This document shows positions 12,044-63,417 of a stretch of DNA of 64,000 nt, one piece after another; the stretch's first letter is position 1; the number at the start of each line of letters is the position of its first letter. The position numbers were made by a program, and so were the translations under genes. The notes beneath the pieces are model-generated. The model had not been told where the DNA came from. It saw only the letters and a program-made list of their open reading frames with translations, and ran no database searches. Source of the DNA: Gemmatimonadales bacterium (GTDB lineage: Bacteria; Gemmatimonadota; Gemmatimonadetes; Gemmatimonadales; GWC2-71-9). The DNA is taken from NCBI GenBank assembly GCA_033764615.1, contig JANRIU010000048.1, positions 68,058 to 132,057 of the forward strand, given 5' to 3'.

Positions 12044-13492
12044 GTGAGCGAGCCGCTCGACCGCCTCCGAACTGCCCTCGCCGACCGATACGCCATCGAG
12101 CGGGAGCTCGGGGCCGGCGGCATGGCCACGGTCTATCTCGCCCGCGACCTCAAGCACGATCGCAACGTCGCCATCAAGGTGCTCCGCCCGGAGCTCGCGG
12201 CGACGCTCGGCCCGGACCGCTTCCCGCGCGAGATCCGCATCCTCGCGCGGCTGCAACATCCGCACATCCTCCCCCTGCTCGACTCGGGCGAGGCCGGCGG
12301 CTTCCTCTACTACACGATGCCGGTGGTGGACGGCGAGACGCTGCGCGAGCGCCTCGACCGGACGGGCGCACTCCCCATCCCCGAGGCGCTCCGCGTGATG
12401 CGCGAAGTCGCGGACGCCCTCGCCGCCGCGCACGCGGCGGGGATCCTGCACCGCGACATCAAGCCCGCCAACGTGATGCTCTCCGGACGCCACGCGCTCG
12501 TGATGGACTTCGGCGTGGCGAAGGCCGTGCACGACGCCGGCGGCGAACGCATGACCACCGTCGGCATGGCCGTGGGCACGCCGACGTACATGTCGCCCGA
12601 GCAGGCGACCGGCTCCCAGTCGATCGACGCCCGCTCCGACATCTACGCCCTCGGCATCCTCGCCTACGAGATGCTCACCGGCCATCCGCCCTTCGGCGGC
12701 AAGACGGCGCAGGCCACCCTCTCGGCCCACGTCCTGGAGCGGCCCCGTCCGGTCACCGAGGCCCGCGGCGCGGTGCCCACCGCGCTCGGCGACTTCGTGA
12801 TGAAGTGCCTCGAGAAGGCGCCGGCCGATCGCTGGCAGACCACCGACGAGCTCGTGCCGCTGCTCGAGGCGATGGCCACGCCGAGCGGCGGCGTCACGCC
12901 GACGACCACCCGTCCCGTGCGCACGGTCGCGCCCGCGGGGGCTGCCCCGGCGTCCGCCACCGCGGGGTCGCGGGCACGGGGCGCGCTGCTCGCCGCCGCC
13001 GCCGGCCTCACGCTGCTCGCCGCGGCTGCGGCCGCGTGGAAGGCGGGCGTGGGGCAGCGTGGCGGGAGCGGGAAGGTCACGCGCGTCGCGGTGATGCCGT
13101 TCCGCGACATCTCCGGCGCCGACGCCGTCTTCGCGGAGAGCATGCAGGATGCGCTGATCAACGGGATCGCGGGCCTGAACCTCGCTGGCGTCGTGCCGCG
13201 CTCGGAGATCGCGACCGGGGGGCAGAGCCGCCGCGTGCGCGACGTGGCGGCCGAGTTCGGCGTGGACGCGGTGATGGAGGGGACGCTGTTCCGCGCCGGC
13301 GACGTGATGCGCATCAACGTCCAGCTCGTGGAGCCGCAGTCCGTCCGGCACTACTGGACGGGCAGCTTCGAGATCGACGTGCGCAATGTCCTCGCGGCGC
13401 AGGATTCCGTGGTCCGCGTCATCAACCTGCAGCTCCGCGGCGTGCTCGATGGCAGCGCGCAGCGCGTGGCCGCGCTTCCGGGCTCGAAATGA
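12044..13492 (+). CDS. Ser/Thr protein kinase with TM segment and C-terminal TolB-N-like periplasmic domain
   Basis: YAIERELGAGGMATVYLARD..VAIKVL, HRDIKPANVML, DFGVAK, GTPTYMSPEQ. This is followed by a hydrophobic stretch (ALLAAAAGLTLLAAAAAAW) and VAVMPFRDISG...GVDAVMEGTLF. Start placed at GTG (VSEPLDRL); the track ORF begins at 11951. Confidence 0.85.
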   Translation: MSEPLDRLRTALADRYAIERELGAGGMATVYLARDLKHDRNVAIKVLRPELAATLGPDRFPREIRILARLQHPHILPLLDSGEAGGFLYYTMPVVDGETLRERLDRTGALPIPEALRVMREVADALAAAHAAGILHRDIKPANVMLSGRHALVMDFGVAKAVHDAGGERMTTVGMAVGTPTYMSPEQATGSQSIDARSDIYALGILAYEMLTGHPPFGGKTAQATLSAHVLERPRPVTEARGAVPTALGDFVMKCLEKAPADRWQTTDELVPLLEAMATPSGGVTPTTTRPVRTVAPAGAAPASATAGSRARGALLAAAAGLTLLAAAAAAWKAGVGQRGGSGKVTRVAVMPFRDISGADAVFAESMQDALINGIAGLNLAGVVPRSEIATGGQSRRVRDVAAEFGVDAVMEGTLFRAGDVMRINVQLVEPQSVRHYWTGSFEIDVRNVLAAQDSVVRVINLQLRGVLDGSAQRVAALPGSK

Positions 13493-15501: not shown

Positions 15502-15887
15502 GCGGTTCGCGGGAGCACGGGAGGGCGGATCGCTCGCGTCGAGCGCACGCTGTCCCGCGTCCGCTCGGCGGGTGCGCTGATCCTCGCCGAGCGTCCCGCA
15601 GGCCGGCTTCCTCGCAGCGCAAGACGCGTGACCGGACCGGCGCGGGAGCAGGGAGGGGCTTCGTCGCACAACGTCGATTGACGCCGATCAACAGACCGTC
15701 GCGGCCACGCCACAGGTCGTTGCGTTCACGTTACGGATATTGTGACGGGTGCGCCGGACTTCGTCGTCGCTGCCGAGGGAGATCGCGACCTGCACGCTTC
15801 TTGCATAACCGGCGTCTTGCCTGCCGGACTGCGCCGTTTCCCGCTTGCAGTCCTCCTTTTCCCTCTCTGCACCCCTGGAGCAAACGA

Positions 15888-16424
15888 ATGCCCTTCCTGT
15901 CCGCAAGGCTCCGCACGCTGGCTTCCGCGCTCGGCGCCGCCTCCCTGCTCCTCACGTCCGACGTCTCGGCGCAAACTCTGGCCCACTTCCAGCTGAGCTG
16001 CGTGAATTGCCGTACCGGCGGCACCTTCTCGCGGAGCTGGGTCACGCCGTTCGCGGCCACGAACGCTCCCGGGTTCGCCGAATCGGTACCGACGCTATTC
16101 TTCAGGATCGACGTGCCGGAGACCAACGGCATCTTCTTCGCGCATTCGGCGACGTATCCGGGCGGTTACAACTACTTCGATATCGGTGGGGCCGTCAACG
16201 CGGCCATGGCCGGTCCGGGCGCGAGTCTCATCTTCGATGGCCCGACCTCCGCGCCGGTCTGGAAGGTCGGCGTCTACCACGACGTGGCGAACTACTTCAT
16301 CGATGGCCTGGACGGCGGCGCGGTCACCCTTCGGATCACCGCCGTGCCGGAACCGGGCTCCCTAGCGCTGTCCACCGTCGGCCTCGTCGGTCTGGGGCTC
16401 GTCGGCCGGCGCCGGCGGGCCTGA
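15888..16424 (+). CDS. PEP-CTERM sorting-domain protein
   Basis: Signal peptide (MPFLSARLRTLASALGAASLLLTSDVSAQ). C-terminal VPEPGSLALSTVGLVGLGLVGRRRRA is a PEP motif, a TM helix and an Arg cluster. GGAG lies about 8 nt upstream of the ATG. Confidence 0.8.
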   Translation: MPFLSARLRTLASALGAASLLLTSDVSAQTLAHFQLSCVNCRTGGTFSRSWVTPFAATNAPGFAESVPTLFFRIDVPETNGIFFAHSATYPGGYNYFDIGGAVNAAMAGPGASLIFDGPTSAPVWKVGVYHDVANYFIDGLDGGAVTLRITAVPEPGSLALSTVGLVGLGLVGRRRRA

Positions 16425-16451
16425 GCAGCGGGACGGGCGCGCAACAGAGGC

Positions 16452-16475
16452 GGGGCCGGCGGCGATGCCGGCCCC
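16452..16475 (+). terminator. GC hairpin downstream of the PEP-CTERM gene
   Basis: GGGGCCGGC-ggcgat-GCCGGCCCC is a perfect 9-bp stem 28 nt after the stop. There is no T-tract. Confidence 0.35.
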
Positions 16476-16595
16476 GCGTCTGCGTATGCGCACCCCTGTC
16501 TCGGGCAGGGAATTCGAACAGGCGATCTCTCCCGTAAGCTTCCCCCTTCGTCAGGCACGCGATGATGGGCTGGGACGGCGCCACGAGGAGGAGTC

Positions 16596-16901
16596 ATGCG
16601 CCGCTCGACGTTCACGGAATCGCAGATCGTCGAGATCCTGAAGGCCGTGGAGGGGGGCCTGCCCGTCGCGGAAGTGATTCGCAAGCACGGGATCAGCCGG
16701 GCCACCTTCTTCACCTGGAAGCCGAAGTACGGCGGCGCGACGGTGGCCGAACTGAAGCGCCTGCGCGAGCTCGAGGCGGAGAACGCCAAGCTCAAGCGGA
16801 TGTACGCCGAGCTGGCGCTCGAGAACACCGCCATCAAGGACGTCCTGTCCCGCAAGCTGTGGGGTCGCCCGCGAGGCGGCAGGTCGCTGCGACCCTGGTG
16901 A
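16596..16901 (+). CDS. IS3-family transposase OrfA (HTH)
   Basis: MRRSTFTESQIVEILKAVEGGLPVAEVIRKHGISRATFFTWKPKYGG..ELKRLRELEAENAKLKRMYAELALEN is a canonical IS3/IS407-group OrfA with a leucine zipper. Confidence 0.9.
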   Translation: MRRSTFTESQIVEILKAVEGGLPVAEVIRKHGISRATFFTWKPKYGGATVAELKRLRELEAENAKLKRMYAELALENTAIKDVLSRKLWGRPRGGRSLRPW

Positions 16902-17716
16902 CGACGCATGGCCTGTCGGTCGTGCGCGCGTGCCGGGTCGCCGGCCTCTCGCGGGCGGCCTACGACACGCCGCTGCCCGATCGGACCGAGCAGGATGCGC
17001 CGGTGATCGCGGCCCTCACCGCCTTGGCGGCGGAGCGGCCGCGGTGGGGCTTCTGGAAGTGCTTCGACCGGCTGCGCCTCGACGGGCACCCGTGGAACTG
17101 GAAGCGCGTGCTGCGCGTCTATCGCGCCCTGCGCCTCCACTTGCCCCGGCGGACGAAGCGGCGGCTGCCCAAGCGGGTGCTGCAGCCGCTGGACGCCCCG
17201 GCGGCGCTCAACCGCACGTGGGCGCTCGACTTCATGCACGACATGCTGTACGACGGCCGACGCTTCCGGACGCTCAACGTGCTGGACGAGGGGAATCGGG
17301 AGGGGCTGGCCATCGAGGTGGGCACCTCGCTGCCGGGCCAGCGCGTGGTCGCCGTCCTCGACCAACTGCTGGCCATCCACGGGGCGCCGCGGGCGCTGCG
17401 CTGTGACAACGGGCCCGAGCTGCTCTCGCGCCCGCTCACGGAGTGGTGCGAGCGGCACGGCGTGCTGCTGCAGCACATCCAGCCGGGGAAGCCGAATCAG
17501 AACGCCTACATCGAGCGCTTCAACCGCACCTACCGCCGCGAAGTCCTCGATGCCTACGTCTTTGCCTCGCTCGCGCAGGTGCGCGCCGAGACCGAGACGT
17601 GGCTGACGACCTACAACACGGAGCGCCCCCACGACAGCCTCGGCGGGGTGCCTCCGCTCACCTTTCTGCCGAGGCCCACCCGACCGCCTGAGTCCAGCTA
17701 TCGACTGTCTGCTTGA
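16859..17716 (+). CDS. IS3-family transposase OrfB (DDE integrase core), expressed as an OrfAB fusion by -1 frameshift
   Basis: WALDFMHD, NVLDEGNRE, CDNGPE..., PGKPNQNAYIERFNRTYRREVLD, YNTERPHDSLGG. The frame is -1 relative to orfA. The upstream part of track ORF 16562..17716 is an open shadow frame. Confidence 0.85.
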   Translation: MGSPARRQVAATLVTTHGLSVVRACRVAGLSRAAYDTPLPDRTEQDAPVIAALTALAAERPRWGFWKCFDRLRLDGHPWNWKRVLRVYRALRLHLPRRTKRRLPKRVLQPLDAPAALNRTWALDFMHDMLYDGRRFRTLNVLDEGNREGLAIEVGTSLPGQRVVAVLDQLLAIHGAPRALRCDNGPELLSRPLTEWCERHGVLLQHIQPGKPNQNAYIERFNRTYRREVLDAYVFASLAQVRAETETWLTTYNTERPHDSLGGVPPLTFLPRPTRPPESSYRLSA

Positions 17717-17832
17717 CGGGGAAGCTTACGGCACCGCTTGACTCAAGTAAGTCGGGGTCGAGGTGCAGCACGAGGCCAGCTGAGATCTGCTTCGTGGTTA
17801 CAGCCATGCGGTTCTCCACACGAGGCGGTCTT

Positions 17833-18741
17833 TCACGGCATGAGGTCCGCTTGGCCGTCCTCTTGCTGGTGGACAACTGCCCGAACCTCGAGCAGGTGAT
17901 ACTTGGTTGCGACAAGGTGGCCTTCGAAGCCTCGATATGCCTCAGCGCGTACGAGAGCCCGTAGCGCGTCGCCTGGACGCAGCGCGATACCTCCTGACTG
18001 GAAGCGACGAAGCCATGCTTCGTCGAGTACCTTCGCCTCAATCGTGCGATCGTCGAGCCGGAACTCCCAGCGGGAGTTGCCGAGGTAGTCTGGCTTCTTG
18101 ACCAGAAGGAGCGCCTCAGTCTCGCTGACGATGACCTCCTGAGTGAGGAGCTCCTCGATTCGTTCATTGGAGAGCCCCCTTGGGGCGGAGATCAGTGTCG
18201 ACTCCTCGTCGGAGATGTATCGTGCAGAGTCTCCCGGCTGGAGCTCGACTAGCGCCTCTGACAGTGTGCGAATGTCACCGAGCAGAATCGCCGGTGGAAC
18301 GGGACTGGGGAGCAGTAGCTGGTTAGAGGGAAGTTGAGGGCGGTCGCTCATCAACTCCTGCTGGAGCTCGAGTACGTCGCCGCGAGATGATACTTCCGGG
18401 TGATCCTCCAGCCAGCGGAGCATCTTATGCTTCGCACGTACGAGATACTGACCTACCAAGGGCTTCCAGTCGAGAGTCTGAAGGGCGTCATCGTTGATCT
18501 CGCGGAGAAGGGTGATCAACCGCGCCCGGATCGAACCCGCCTCTACTCGTTCCAGCAGTAGGACCGGCTCAATCGATGCAGAGACCGAGGCGGCGAGGCT
18601 CTGATCGGTGCGCTGGAACGCATCGATGAGAAGAGCCATCGCGCGAAAGACCCGGGCCGGGTCAGTGCTCGCGGGCGGATAGTCGATCTGGATCGTAGAG
18701 ACGAGTTCGTCGCCGCGAAGTTGCGCTGTGTACGAAGTCAC
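17833..18741 (-). CDS. hypothetical protein, no recognisable family (putative integron cassette 2)
   Basis: 302-aa ORF in visibly lower-GC DNA. AGGAGG lies 9 nt upstream of a GTG start. It follows the GTTAGGC end of the attC-like site. Confidence 0.7.
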   Translation of the reverse strand: MTSYTAQLRGDELVSTIQIDYPPASTDPARVFRAMALLIDAFQRTDQSLAASVSASIEPVLLLERVEAGSIRARLITLLREINDDALQTLDWKPLVGQYLVRAKHKMLRWLEDHPEVSSRGDVLELQQELMSDRPQLPSNQLLLPSPVPPAILLGDIRTLSEALVELQPGDSARYISDEESTLISAPRGLSNERIEELLTQEVIVSETEALLLVKKPDYLGNSRWEFRLDDRTIEAKVLDEAWLRRFQSGGIALRPGDALRALVRAEAYRGFEGHLVATKYHLLEVRAVVHQQEDGQADLMP

Positions 18742-18771
18742 TCGTGCCGACCTCCTAAGCTAAGGGCATCC

Positions 18772-18906
18772 GCCTAACGTGTGCTTCTGCTGCAGCCGCT
18801 TCCAAAAAAGCAGTTGTGGGGCGGCCGCAGGGCGTCCCATAGAACAGTGCGGGCGCCCCACAACTGCATCGCTAGCTGCGGCTGTCGGCAGCAAGCGTCG
18901 TTATGG
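18772..18906 (-). other. attC-like imperfect palindrome (putative cassette recombination site) with embedded intrinsic terminator
   Basis: Minus strand reads CCATAAC-gac-GCTTGCTGCcgacAGCCGCagc..GCAGTTGTGGGGCG-N30-CGCCCCACAACTGC-TTTTTTGG..GCGGCTgcaGCAGCagAAGCac-ac-GTTAGGC. The outer arms pair with bulges, the inner stem is 14 bp perfect followed by T6, and the TAA stop of the upstream ORF lies inside the CCATAAC box. Confidence 0.45.
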
Positions 18907-19467
18907 CGCGCCCTTCTTGGCGCTCGTAGGCACGCGACTCGGAAACTCGTAGACGAACTTCAGAAGCATCTCGACGAATGTGATCAGTTCCTCGGATTCC
19001 GTTGAGCCCATTAACACCAGCTCGTGAGTGGCCTCATTCCCTTTTTGGCGGATATGGTCGACCCAAGCCTTGCCGTTCGGCGGAACAAAGCCGGCGGCAG
19101 CAAGATGCTCCACGTACTCGATGAACTTTAGGCCAGGTGCCGCGCCCTGAGCGACGGCGATGTGCATTAGCAGCTTACGAGCGAGGAGCACTGCGCCCGT
19201 GTGACAGTTGGATGCAGCGCTGGCTCTCGCCTCTTCATAGATCGCCGCAATGTCCTGCGGGAGATTCCGAACAGTTTCGCCGGTTCTAAAGCCGGGAATC
19301 TGCCCATGACCGGAGAAGTGACTCGGCGCACTGCAGTTCGGGCAGATGTAGATGCGAGAAGTACCGTGATCTGGATTGTACCAGCCTTGCCGCGATGCAA
19401 CCAACCGATCGCAATGGCCGCATGTGTACTCTCGCGGTCCGATATCTTGAAGATTGCCCCAACCCAT
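18901..19467 (-). CDS. zinc-ribbon + DUF4145 domain protein (putative integron cassette 1)
   Basis: N-terminal CGHC..(21)..CPNC. The C-terminal half (AVLLARKLLMHIA...VDHIRQKGNEATHE...EELITFVEMLLKFVYEFP) matches the DUF4145 pattern. GAGGTG lies 6 nt upstream of the ATG, 20 nt after a GTTATGG box. Confidence 0.8.
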   Translation of the reverse strand: MGWGNLQDIGPREYTCGHCDRLVASRQGWYNPDHGTSRIYICPNCSAPSHFSGHGQIPGFRTGETVRNLPQDIAAIYEEARASAASNCHTGAVLLARKLLMHIAVAQGAAPGLKFIEYVEHLAAAGFVPPNGKAWVDHIRQKGNEATHELVLMGSTESEELITFVEMLLKFVYEFPSRVPTSAKKGAP

Positions 19468-19487
19468 TTGTCACCTCGCGCGCGTCG

Positions 19488-19775
19488 CCATAACTACTCT
19501 TTGACTTCGACCACACTCACTCCCCTCTTACGAACCGAATAAACGCATAACCACCCGCCCGCTCAGCAGCTCGCAAACCACGATATCGCCAAGACTTGCA
19601 CCGCGCAACGTCCGCCCCGCGCTGCTGCTTAGGCCGCAAGACCCGCCCTTCGCAGTACGAACCGAATTAGACCGCTTAGGGGCCCTACGGTGGGGCGTAG
19701 AGCCAGACAGACGCGCCGCGGAAGCCGCTCGGGGCACCGGACACGGTGACGACGGCAAGCCAAGACGGCGGCAGA
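19488..19775 (-). repeat. conserved non-coding block, copy A (attI-like region between intI remnant and first cassette)
   Basis: Collinear with 63715..64000 at a constant offset of about 44,225 nt. Shared islands are GTTA(T/G)G, TTCGAC, CGAACCG(A/G)ATAA and ACGAACCGA(A/C)TTAGAC(C/G)GCTTAGGG. Confidence 0.7.
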
Positions 19776-19822: not shown

Positions 19823-20041
19823 TCAGGGCGCGCTTCGCAGATCATCCCCGTCCCCGCCGCGCGCGCCGAGGCCCCCAAGCCGATCCATCGGCGACCGGAC
19901 GCCGCCGGCGCCCCGCTGCAGCACATGCGTGTACAGCATGGTGGTCGCCACGTCGCGGTGACCGAGCAGCTCCTGCACGCCCCGGATGTCGAACCCAACC
20001 TCCAGCAGGCGCGCGGCGAACGAACGCCGCCACGCGGCCAC
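19823..20041 (-). pseudogene. intI: integron integrase (IntI) C-terminal remnant
   Basis: ..[51 protein letters not shown] matches the IntI C-terminus (LRHSFATHLLE.GYDIRTVQELLGH.DV.TTMIYTHVL..GG.GVRSPLD), including the catalytic Tyr box and the IntI-typical GVRSP tail. About 270 N-terminal residues are missing, and the conserved His is Arg. Confidence 0.7.
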
Positions 20042-20425
20042 TACACCTTCCGCACGGGCGAGCCGTAGCGCGCCAACTCGGCGTCGGAGGTGAGCAGCGT
20101 GACGCCCTCCACGCGCGCCTGCGCCACGAGCATCCTGTCGAAGGGGTCGCGGTGCACCGCAGGCAGGAGCGCGACGGCCACGGCGTGCTGAGAGGTGACC
20201 GGAAGCTCGAGGTAGCCGTTGTCGAGCAACCCGCGACGGAGCACGCCGGCGTCCACCTGGAAATCATCCCGCCCGAGGGATGACTTGATGGCGACCTCCC
20301 GGATGCTGGCGGCACTGAACACGAGCTCGTGCTCCAGATCGGCCATGAGCGCCCGCCGCGCGCGAGATGCGCTCCGGCTCGCCAGCGGCCCACGAGATGT
20401 GCTGCGTCGGGAGGAGCAGCTTCAC
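20041..20425 (-). pseudogene. vapC: PIN-domain toxin VapC, frameshifted
   Basis: Track ORF 20041..20346 carries ..ELVFSAASIREVAIK...[16 protein letters not shown]...TLLTSD. The N-terminus (VKLLLPTQHISWAAGEPERISRAA) is in another frame starting at a GTG that overlaps the antitoxin TGA. The 385-nt span is not a multiple of 3. Confidence 0.7.
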
Positions 20426-20661
20426 GCCTTTACGCCGAACTGCGCGGCGATCTCGCGCTCACCCATGCGGTTGAAGTCCCGGGGAATCCGCAGCTCTCCC
20501 TGCAGGAAGCCAAGCCGGCGCGGCGCGGCAGGCGCATCGAGCGCCACGACCTTCACGAGCGGCTGCCCCGCCTTCGCGATGATGAAGCTCTCTCCCTTGG
20601 CGGCTCCGTCGACGAGCTTGGAGAGATGGATCTTGCCGAAGTGGATGTCGACCGTGCGCAT
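20422..20661 (-). CDS. Phd/YefM-family antitoxin
   Basis: MRTVDIHFGKIHLSKLVDGAAKGESFIIAKAGQPLVKVVAL....RRLGFLQGELRIPRDF. Start at the internal Met of track ORF 20422..20850. Confidence 0.75.
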   Translation of the reverse strand: MRTVDIHFGKIHLSKLVDGAAKGESFIIAKAGQPLVKVVALDAPAAPRRLGFLQGELRIPRDFNRMGEREIAAQFGVKA

Positions 20662-63228: not shown

Positions 63229-63317
63229 CCGTGTTGACACGATACACGACGTTGTTTTTCAATCACTTGCGCGGCGTCGGGAAGCGGCGATTGGCGTGTC
63301 CTCCCCCCCCCGAAAAC

Positions 63318-63417
63318 TGACCTTGGTCCCGTTCTGAGACAACGCTCAGTCAGAGCGGCGCGCCTTCTGACCTTGGTCCCGTTTTGAGACAGCGCTCAGT
63401 CAGAGCGGCGCGCCTTC
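63318..63417. repeat. 50-bp tandem duplication (2 copies, 2 mismatches) of an IS end plus the last 6 codons of its transposase
   Basis: TGACCTTGGTCCCGTT(C/T)TGAGACA(A/G)CGCTCAGTCAGAGCGGCGCGCCTTC occurs at 63318-63367 and 63368-63417. Confidence 0.85.

Follow-up and report, generated by a model that had tools for sequence, protein, structure and literature searches.

The imperfect palindrome of 135 nt that follows a DUF4145 gene in the 64-kb stretch of Gemmatimonadales DNA analyzed here (the window) is very probably the attC site of an integron cassette, carried by a decayed same-direction chromosomal integron of a Gemmatimonadales bacterium. The attC site is a well-known kind of element; the first-pass annotation of this DNA, which had read the palindrome as attC-like, was correct in its call and did not describe a new kind. 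That reading is supported by a covariance model built from the attC sites of related integrons, by a remnant of an integron integrase gene (intI), by an attI-like core, and by the homologues of the flanking genes in other cassette arrays. The truncated intI and the attI-like site just upstream, as well as the membership of both flanking genes in cassette families, had not been part of the first-pass annotation. The features of the locus are listed in Table 1.

Table 1. Coordinates of the attC site, the cassettes, and the neighboring integron features in the window.
Feature	Position	Strand	Description and basis
attC of cassette 1	18772–18906/18907	minus	R''–spacer–L''–variable terminal structure–L'–spacer–R'; 135–136 nt; full-model match of covariance model R2 and fold z-scores
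R'' (inverse core) CCATAAC	18906–18900	minus	sequence and covariance-model alignment; start at 18907 if read GCC(A)TAAC
L'' arm GCTT-G-CTGCCG-A-CAGCCGC	18878–18896	minus	extrahelical G18892 and A18885, 7 nt apart; covariance-model alignment
Variable terminal structure	18810–18867	minus	perfect 14-bp stem 18867–18854 / 18823–18810 closing a partly paired 30-nt top
T6 run	18804–18809	minus	immediately 3' of the inner stem-loop, read on the gene strand; could be the U-tract of an intrinsic terminator
L' arm GCGGCTG-CAGCAG-AAGC	18783–18799	minus	covariance-model alignment
R' (core) GTTAGGC	18772–18778	minus	sequence and covariance-model alignment; predicted crossover G↓TT between 18778/18777 = cassette 1/cassette 2 junction
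Cassette 1 (716 bp)	18778–19493	minus	TTATGG ... DUF4145/HEPN gene 18901–19467 ... attC through G of R'; boundary rule
Cassette 2 (5' part and gene)	17833–18777	minus	starts TTAGGC; 302-aa gene 17833–18741; NCBIfam LAPAL_fam, 69 bits
attI-side core GTTATGG	19494–19488	minus	in the context GAGTAGTTATGG; left boundary of cassette 1
intI remnant	19823–20071	minus	last ~50–65 codons; TIGR02249, IntI4 and tblastn matches
IS3-family insertion sequence	16530–17733	plus	rve/rve_3 domains; terminal inverted repeats 16532–16563 / 17700–17731

Sequence and Fold of the Element

Read on the gene strand, the element begins with CCATAAC, whose TAA (18903–18901) is the stop codon of the DUF4145 gene, and ends with GTTAGGC, and 31 nt farther on the following 302-aa gene starts with a GTG (18741) preceded by AGGAGG; both ends are as first annotated. 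The R' box agrees perfectly with the consensus GTTRRRY, and CCATAAC fits the R'' consensus RYYYAAC at five of seven positions with the invariant AAC kept. The annotation had noted this deviation together with a pairing of R'' and R' at five of seven positions, which holds for CCATAAC; read as GCC(A)TAAC (18907–18900), however, the box pairs with GTTAGGC at all seven positions with one bulged A. The bulged pairing of the outer arms was likewise borne out, although its register had to be refined to GCTT-[G]-CTGCCG-[A]-CAGCCGC against GCGGCTG-CAGCAG-AAGC, which is the register found in relatives. One C.A mismatch in the arms on the top strand becomes a G.T wobble on the bottom strand. The two extrahelical bases of the R''–L'' arm are 7 nt apart, in keeping with the attC architecture of two or three such bases spaced by 6–8 nt (PMC2727003); in the model, they fall on a pair of unpaired columns conserved across 57 attCs from relatives. 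The length of 135 nt falls inside the attC range of 57–141 nt.

Between the arms, the minus strand runs ...GCGCCATAACGACGCTTGCTGCCGACAGCCGCAGCTAGCGAT-GCAGTTGTGGGGCG-(30 nt)-CGCCCCACAACTGC-TTTTTTGGAAGCGGCTGCAGCAGAAGCACACGTTAGGC..., where GCAGTTGTGGGGCG and CGCCCCACAACTGC form the perfect 14-bp inner stem followed by TTTTTT that the annotation had described. Folded as DNA, the gene (top) strand reached −41.7 kcal/mol (z = −5.3) and the complementary (bottom) strand −48.4 kcal/mol (z = −7.9), and the element folded as RNA reached −95.2 kcal/mol (z = −8.7); none of 200 shuffles was as good in any of the three folds. The bottom strand, which the annotation had singled out for folding, is therefore the stabler of the two DNA strands, and its fold has four single-base bulges, all on the 3' half, which is the R''–L'' arm. 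In the sequencing run DRR729081, the assembly is interrupted within the attC, in its right arm and R' core (L003 ends at 18775 and L004 starts at 18804), and two sister runs assemble through the site. Such a break might come from a population that is heterogeneous at the cassette junction, or simply from an artefact of the hairpin or of coverage.

Covariance Model Analysis and attC Sites of Related Integrons

Loci and proteins related to the IntI fragment were collected from Gemmatimonadales, Vicinamibacterales, Planctomycetota, Chloroflexota, and other groups. The closest IntI matches among the GTDB representatives scanned were those of Gemmatimonadales MAGs (77%). Many of the related loci hold arrays of small genes split by palindromes of 60–145 nt with RYYYAAC...GTTRRRY ends, and they show two geometries: a classical one, with the attCs upstream of intI on the opposite strand, and a same-direction one, with the attCs downstream on the same strand.

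The arms of the window element closely resemble those of the relatives. They read TAAC-GAC-GCTT-G-CTGCCG-A-CAGCCGC ... GCGGCTG-CAGCAG-AAGC-ACAC-GTTAGGC in the window, TAAC-ACGC-GCTT-G-CAGCCG-A-C-GCAGCCCGC ... GCGGGCTGC-G-CGGCTG-AAGC-...-GTTAGGC in the related locus L005, and TAAC-AAGC-GCAT-G-CAGCCG-A-CAGGCC ... GGCCTG-CAGCTG-ATGC-...-GTTAGGC in the Gemmatimonadales locus L016. The likeness is also seen when GCTTGCAGCCGAC...GCGGCTGAAGC (L005/L006) and GCATGCAGCCGAC...CAGCTGATGC (Gemmatimonadales) are set against GCTTGCTGCCGAC...CAGCAGAAGC of the window. An unpaired G, an unpaired A 7 nt on, and the position of the C.A mismatch are common to the window attC and the attCs of relatives. The length of the window attC is close to that of the Gemmatimonadales sites (135–143 nt), and the spacers flanking its L box are shorter than in most relatives. 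Across 57 attCs of relatives, 90% of the cells of the pairing model form pairs, a share that drops to 25–38% with shifted partner columns, and 14 pairs covary, with both of their positions changed.

The window sequence was left out of every covariance model. A strict regular expression (RYYYAAC...GTTRRRY with a hairpin filter) gave 182 strand-hits in relatives and none in the window, which it missed because R'' is off-consensus; it was too strict to serve as a test. A first model (R1), made from attCs trimmed to 60 nt, also missed the element and returned only noise with E > 0.9 in the window, owing to the maximum hit length of the model and not to absent similarity. A full-length alignment (A2), in which some right arms were misaligned, was not used for a model. 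The final model (R2) combined 57 trimmed attCs with 20 full-length ones (ten loci), whereby the center of the site became an insertion.

Searched against the 64-kb window with filters off, R2 gave one significant match, exactly at 18772–18907 on the gene (minus) strand, covering model positions 1–61 of 61 with 28.8 bits (E = 4.7e-5); the runner-up scored 13.9 bits (E = 0.33). The annotation had proposed such a check with the attC covariance model of IntegronFinder; its counterpart with the home-built R2 came out in favor of the attC reading. In 72 loci outside the training set (808 kb), R2 found 90 attCs whose strand and position fit the intI geometry in all but about two cases. Positive controls were recovered as well: the class 1 attC of dfrA14, placed immediately behind that gene with the strand correct (30.1 bits), and 21 sites on Gemmatirosa kalamazoonensis plasmid 1, downstream of its IntI match. 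The score of the window attC lies at the low end of the 24–68 bits of attCs in related integrons, yet it is on par with that of the dfrA14 control. The annotation had also proposed to judge the reading by similar sites elsewhere in the genome; such sites are abundant in related integrons (175 hits), and no second copy of the arms or of the inner stem was found within the 64-kb window.

The alternative that survives best, and which we still consider very unlikely, is that the element is a Rho-independent terminator of this DUF4145 gene and nothing else, with the outer arms and the GTTAGGC and TAAC ends arising by chance. A perfect, GC-rich 14-bp stem followed by T6 on the gene strand, with the T-run on the sense strand only, is consistent with this explanation. 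A terminator, however, has no need of 39-nt outer arms, and these agree at every base with the L-box consensus of attCs in related arrays, down to the two bulges and the position of the C.A mismatch. The family-specific L box and the two extrahelical bases thus speak against the terminator-alone explanation, which the annotation had regarded as fatal to the attC reading. The E value of the covariance model match, the intI remnant and attI motif upstream, and the different attCs found at the equivalent place after homologous genes elsewhere argue in the same direction. Moreover, the inner hairpin was not called by a simple terminator scan, since its loop (the 30-nt top) is longer than 8 nt.

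Integrase Remnant and attI-Like Site

The intI remnant lies approximately 920 bp upstream of the attC on the same strand and is truncated at its 5' end. Its 72-aa ORF (19823–20041, minus) matched positions 264–315 of 315 of the NCBIfam model TIGR02249 "integron integrase" (80.7 bits, E = 1e-22), XerC/XerD scoring about 48 bits on the same ORF, and it aligned to residues 270–320 of Vibrio cholerae IntI4 (2a3v), through the last residue. When the full-length IntI proteins of relatives were searched with tblastn, the sole match in the window was at 19883–20071, and the N-terminal part of intI was not found within the 64 kb. A complete integron in the sense of IntegronFinder has an intact intI, with the IntI-specific domain, beside one attC or more. 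The locus is not one, as its intI covers only the end of TIGR02249 and scores below the cutoff of 265 bits.

The attI-side core GTTATGG stands 20 nt before the ATG of the DUF4145 gene and is the exact reverse complement of the R'' box CCATAAC. A conserved motif, TA(C)TAGTTRRRY, occurs at the equivalent place in nine related loci (L005, L007, L008, L016, L024, L027, L053, L056, and L084), with TTACTAGTTAGGC, ATACTAGTTAGCG, and ACTAATAGTTATGC as examples. Of 14 same-direction relatives, nine have at the attI junction, 79–210 nt past the intI stop, a 7-mer that exactly reverse-complements the R'' of their first attC. The window obeys this rule, and the expectation for such a complement by chance in 330 nt is about 2%. 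The pair GCATAAC/GTTATGC in L008 is a natural example of the ATAAC variant of R''.

In cassette arrays, the last six bases of R' belong to the following cassette. An R'' should therefore complement the core at the 5' end of its own cassette, and the exact complementarity of CCATAAC and GTTATGG accordingly defines a cassette of 716 bp (19493–18778) and explains why R'' and R' of the element pair at only five of seven positions. The element thus stands at the 3' end of a compact single-gene cassette, with an R'' complementary to the core at the 5' boundary.

The minus strand carries the intI remnant, the attI-like motif, the attC, and both genes, and intI has its 3' end toward attI. This is the same-direction geometry, which also occurs in L007, L016, L027, L053, L062, L108, and L112. 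Along the minus strand, a Phd/PIN toxin–antitoxin pair, made up of a PIN-domain gene and a Phd-like antitoxin gene upstream of the intI remnant, is followed by the intI remnant, the attI-like G↓TTATGG, cassette 1, G↓TTAGGC, cassette 2, and the IS3-family element. No sigma-70 promoter was found around attI or the cassettes by a promoter scan, which is uninformative for this phylum.

Several observations were made on the genes around these sites. The PIN toxin gene (20041–20425, minus) appears frameshifted, with a typical N-terminus (MKLLLPTQHISWAAGEPERIS) in the ORF 20264–20425 and the remainder in another frame (20041–20346); its 3' end overlaps the intI remnant, and the partner Phd-like antitoxin is at approximately 20422–20661. 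Among relatives, intI genes that are broken by internal deletion, frameshift, or truncation while attC arrays are kept were seen in L008 (9876–10159), L032 (9600–10156), L016 (9860–10165), and L052 (9722–10177). The first cassettes of L008 (MNT/HEPN-like) and L032 (AbrB/PemK-like) resemble toxin–antitoxin pairs. L112 is plasmid 1 of Gemmatirosa kalamazoonensis KBS708 (NZ_CP007129.1, 844839–868985), where at least 21 attCs follow the IntI match and continue to the end of this interval; it is a large same-direction integron on an unannotated 1.1-Mb replicon of a cultured member of the Gemmatimonadota.

Cassette Genes and Their Homologues

The G + C content falls from about 74% in the window to 58–62% at 17600–19650, and this island consists of exactly the two genes and the palindrome. 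The gene of cassette 1 encodes a 188-aa protein with a zinc ribbon and a DUF4145/HEPN domain (Pfam DUF4145, E = 2.4e-8). Homologues of this protein with 49–58% identity were found in twenty metagenomic loci, in five of which an attC follows the gene at 10–25 nt on the same strand; one of the loci (L088) carries an array of at least ten attCs. The family of the 302-aa protein of cassette 2 (LAPAL_fam) has 426 relatives. In L108, a homologue occupies the third cassette position behind a full-length IntI and has attCs on both sides, and the homologue in L110 is also bounded by attCs on both sides. The locus was unchanged in three sequencing runs, and a 268-aa annotated protein of a Gemmatimonadales MAG is 100% identical to the 302-aa gene product over the shorter call.

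These homologues bear on a second alternative, still less probable than a terminator alone, that the palindrome is an intercistronic RNA structure of a two-gene operon and serves in mRNA processing, stabilisation, or translational coupling of the DUF4145 and 302-aa genes instead of DNA recombination. Both genes are on the same strand with a gap of 159 nt, the RNA fold is very strong, and the products of both have weak matches to candidate defence families, all of which would suit an operon. The genes are not conserved neighbors, however: no 302-aa homologue was found in the 20 loci with a DUF4145 homologue, and no locus among these or the integron loci encodes both families. Since each gene is found alone as a cassette with its own attC and the two co-occur in none of these other loci, they are independent cassettes and not an operon.

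In NCBIfam, the family of the 302-aa protein is called "LAPAL motif-containing putative phage structural protein," yet its homologues are found in integron cassette arrays. In L107 (1–8734), the neighbors of the 302-aa homologue are HEPN_Swt1, TIR (CAP12-PCTIR), and DUF4062 genes, and there is a weak match to PADLOC PDC-S42. For this family, a role in defence would seem at least as likely as a structural one, as judged from its sequence matches and gene neighbors. Both cassettes, the zinc-ribbon–HEPN one and the LAPAL-family one, are candidate single-gene anti-phage defences.

Decay of the Cassette Array

The decay of this chromosomal integron shows in the truncated intI, the lack of a detectable second attC, and the insertion sequence that adjoins the array. 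Downstream of the 302-aa gene, a second attC was found neither by R2 nor by a truncation-aware search of the 127 nt up to the IS junction. A candidate picked by eye after this gene (CTGTAAC-CAC-GAAGCAG-A-TCTCAGC) bears a weak resemblance to an attC and has no covariance model match. With one significant attC in the window, the locus falls short of a CALIN, which comprises at least two attCs within about 4 kb. It is thus neither a complete integron nor a CALIN because intI is a stub and the attC is single. The rules of IntegronFinder discard isolated attCs, and intI pseudogenes and insertion sequences near cassette clusters have been documented (PMC4889954).

The IS3-family element begins 100 nt after the stop codon of the 302-aa gene and abuts the array. 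An attC split by this insertion was considered and rejected; the joined flanks of the element do not rebuild an attC. Deletion or truncation of the distal array mediated by the element is plausible but unproven. Its terminal repeats are 32 nt long and imperfect, and no clear target-site duplication was found at its flanks. The element lies between the cassette array and a convergent gene for a PEP-CTERM-anchored protein (15678–16424, plus), which has a G + C content of about 65%, below that of the host, and is followed by a 16-bp near-perfect GC hairpin (16445–16482). This gene may be foreign DNA.

A dispersed repetitive palindrome (REP/BIME- or MITE-like) that came to lie between two genes by chance is the least probable explanation of all, since, for all that the element is a long imperfect intergenic palindrome near an insertion sequence, its arms and inner stem are single-copy in 64 kb, R2 has no other significant match in the window, and the similar sequences found elsewhere are all in cassette arrays beside integron integrases. 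Other repeats were noted in the window. Two tandem copies of a 50-nt unit, 96% identical, lie near its end (63317–63416), and long imperfect inverted repeats with 75–78% complementarity (350–654 and 12213–12520) probably mark paralogous protein-kinase-type genes on opposite strands.

Proposed Recombination Mechanism

The way in which the attC would act can be outlined from established integron biology and the structural model of attC sites (PMC2727003). The bottom strand, which is the plus strand of the window, would fold into the bulged hairpin, and an integron integrase would recognize the R box, the unpaired spacer, the L box, and the two extrahelical bases on the R''–L'' arm. Cleavage at the R box (top-strand G↓TT) would release the 716-bp cassette as a circle, in which R'' CCATAAC would face a perfectly complementary R', GTTATGG, with the junction ...ACACG↓TTATGGCGAC. 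This circle could then be reinserted at an attI. Because intI is truncated here, the attC can act only with an integrase supplied in trans and is otherwise a relic. Present-day recombination activity is unproven, and the 64 kb contain no intact integrase.

Possible Role in Transcription Termination

Apart from recombination, the inner GC-rich 14-bp hairpin and its U6 tract may also terminate or attenuate transcription after cassette 1, to judge from their resemblance to an intrinsic terminator. It has been held that attCs do not terminate transcription, since the ones studied lack T-runs (PMC8876359); the window attC, unlike the studied class 1 attCs, has one. Among 93 long attCs of relatives, the variable region contains a T-run on the sense strand in ten and an A-run in two. 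This excess of T-runs is a hint that "terminator attCs" may form a selected sub-class within environmental same-direction integrons. In a sub-class of attCs of about 100 nt (L108, 3055–5428; L007, 5533–5633; L110, 2194–2293), the variable region consists of ATTGAA, a GC hairpin, and TCTTATTTGA, which is terminator-like. A more far-reaching proposal, that the attC doubles as an efficient Rho-independent terminator insulating cassette 1 from cassette 2 and that both cassettes are single-gene anti-phage defences, is tentative, and we regard it as rather doubtful.

Comparison With Known Integrons

The element shares with classical attCs, or 59-base elements (Bouvier et al., 2009, PMC2727003; IntegronFinder, PMC4889954), an R'' ending in AAC, an R' beginning with GTT, an imperfect palindrome (here of 135 nt), an unpaired spacer separating the R box from the L box, a pair of extrahelical bases at a distance of 7 nt on the R''–L'' arm, and a variable terminal structure. 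As in these sites, the bottom strand is the stabler one, and the site directly follows the cassette ORF, whose stop codon lies in R'', with the next ORF 31 nt past R'. In contrast to classical attCs, R'' is CCATAAC (or GCC-A-TAAC) instead of RYYYAAC, the variable region contains a terminator-like hairpin with T6, and the site is solitary beside a truncated integrase. The first extrahelical base is a G on the bottom strand in the best-studied attCs, whereas it is a C on the bottom strand (a G on the top strand) in the window; this is a lineage trait common to related arrays of Gemmatimonadales, Acidobacteriota, and others.

Same-direction, "atypical," or inverted chromosomal integrons were first described in Treponema denticola (PMC3607928). 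The window shares with them the placement of intI, an attI-like site, and cassettes on a single strand and an intI that runs toward attI, a layout also found in plasmid 1 of Gemmatirosa kalamazoonensis and in many MAGs. It differs in that only the last ~50–65 codons of the integrase, two cassettes, and one attC are left. Similar to CALINs and integrons with intI pseudogenes (Cury et al., 2016, PMC4889954), the locus has kept cassettes after the loss of the integrase, with an insertion sequence adjoining as in scenarios of IS-mediated decay. A CALIN, however, requires at least two attCs and only one is detectable here, so that an automatic pipeline would report nothing. With intrinsic terminators, the element has in common a GC-rich hairpin followed by six T on the sense strand, but this hairpin measures 58 nt, of which 30 nt make up the top, and is embedded in the larger palindrome of a recombination site.

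Implications

A reading of the sequence alone can recover a true cryptic attC that standard pipelines drop, as they would drop this one because the attC is isolated and the integrase fragment is too short to score. If functional, the terminator-like core of the attC would bear on the expression of cassettes in such integrons. Integrons have recently been pictured as stores of anti-phage genes (bioRxiv 10.1101/2024.07.02.601686, 10.1101/2024.07.02.601719), and the candidate defence cassettes (HEPN/DUF4145 and LAPAL-family) of this locus agree with that picture. The locus shows a stage in the decay of an integron within a Gemmatimonadales genome of high G + C content, at which the integrase has been truncated beside a toxin–antitoxin pair, the array appears to have been cut by an insertion sequence, and two low-GC foreign cassettes are becoming fixed.
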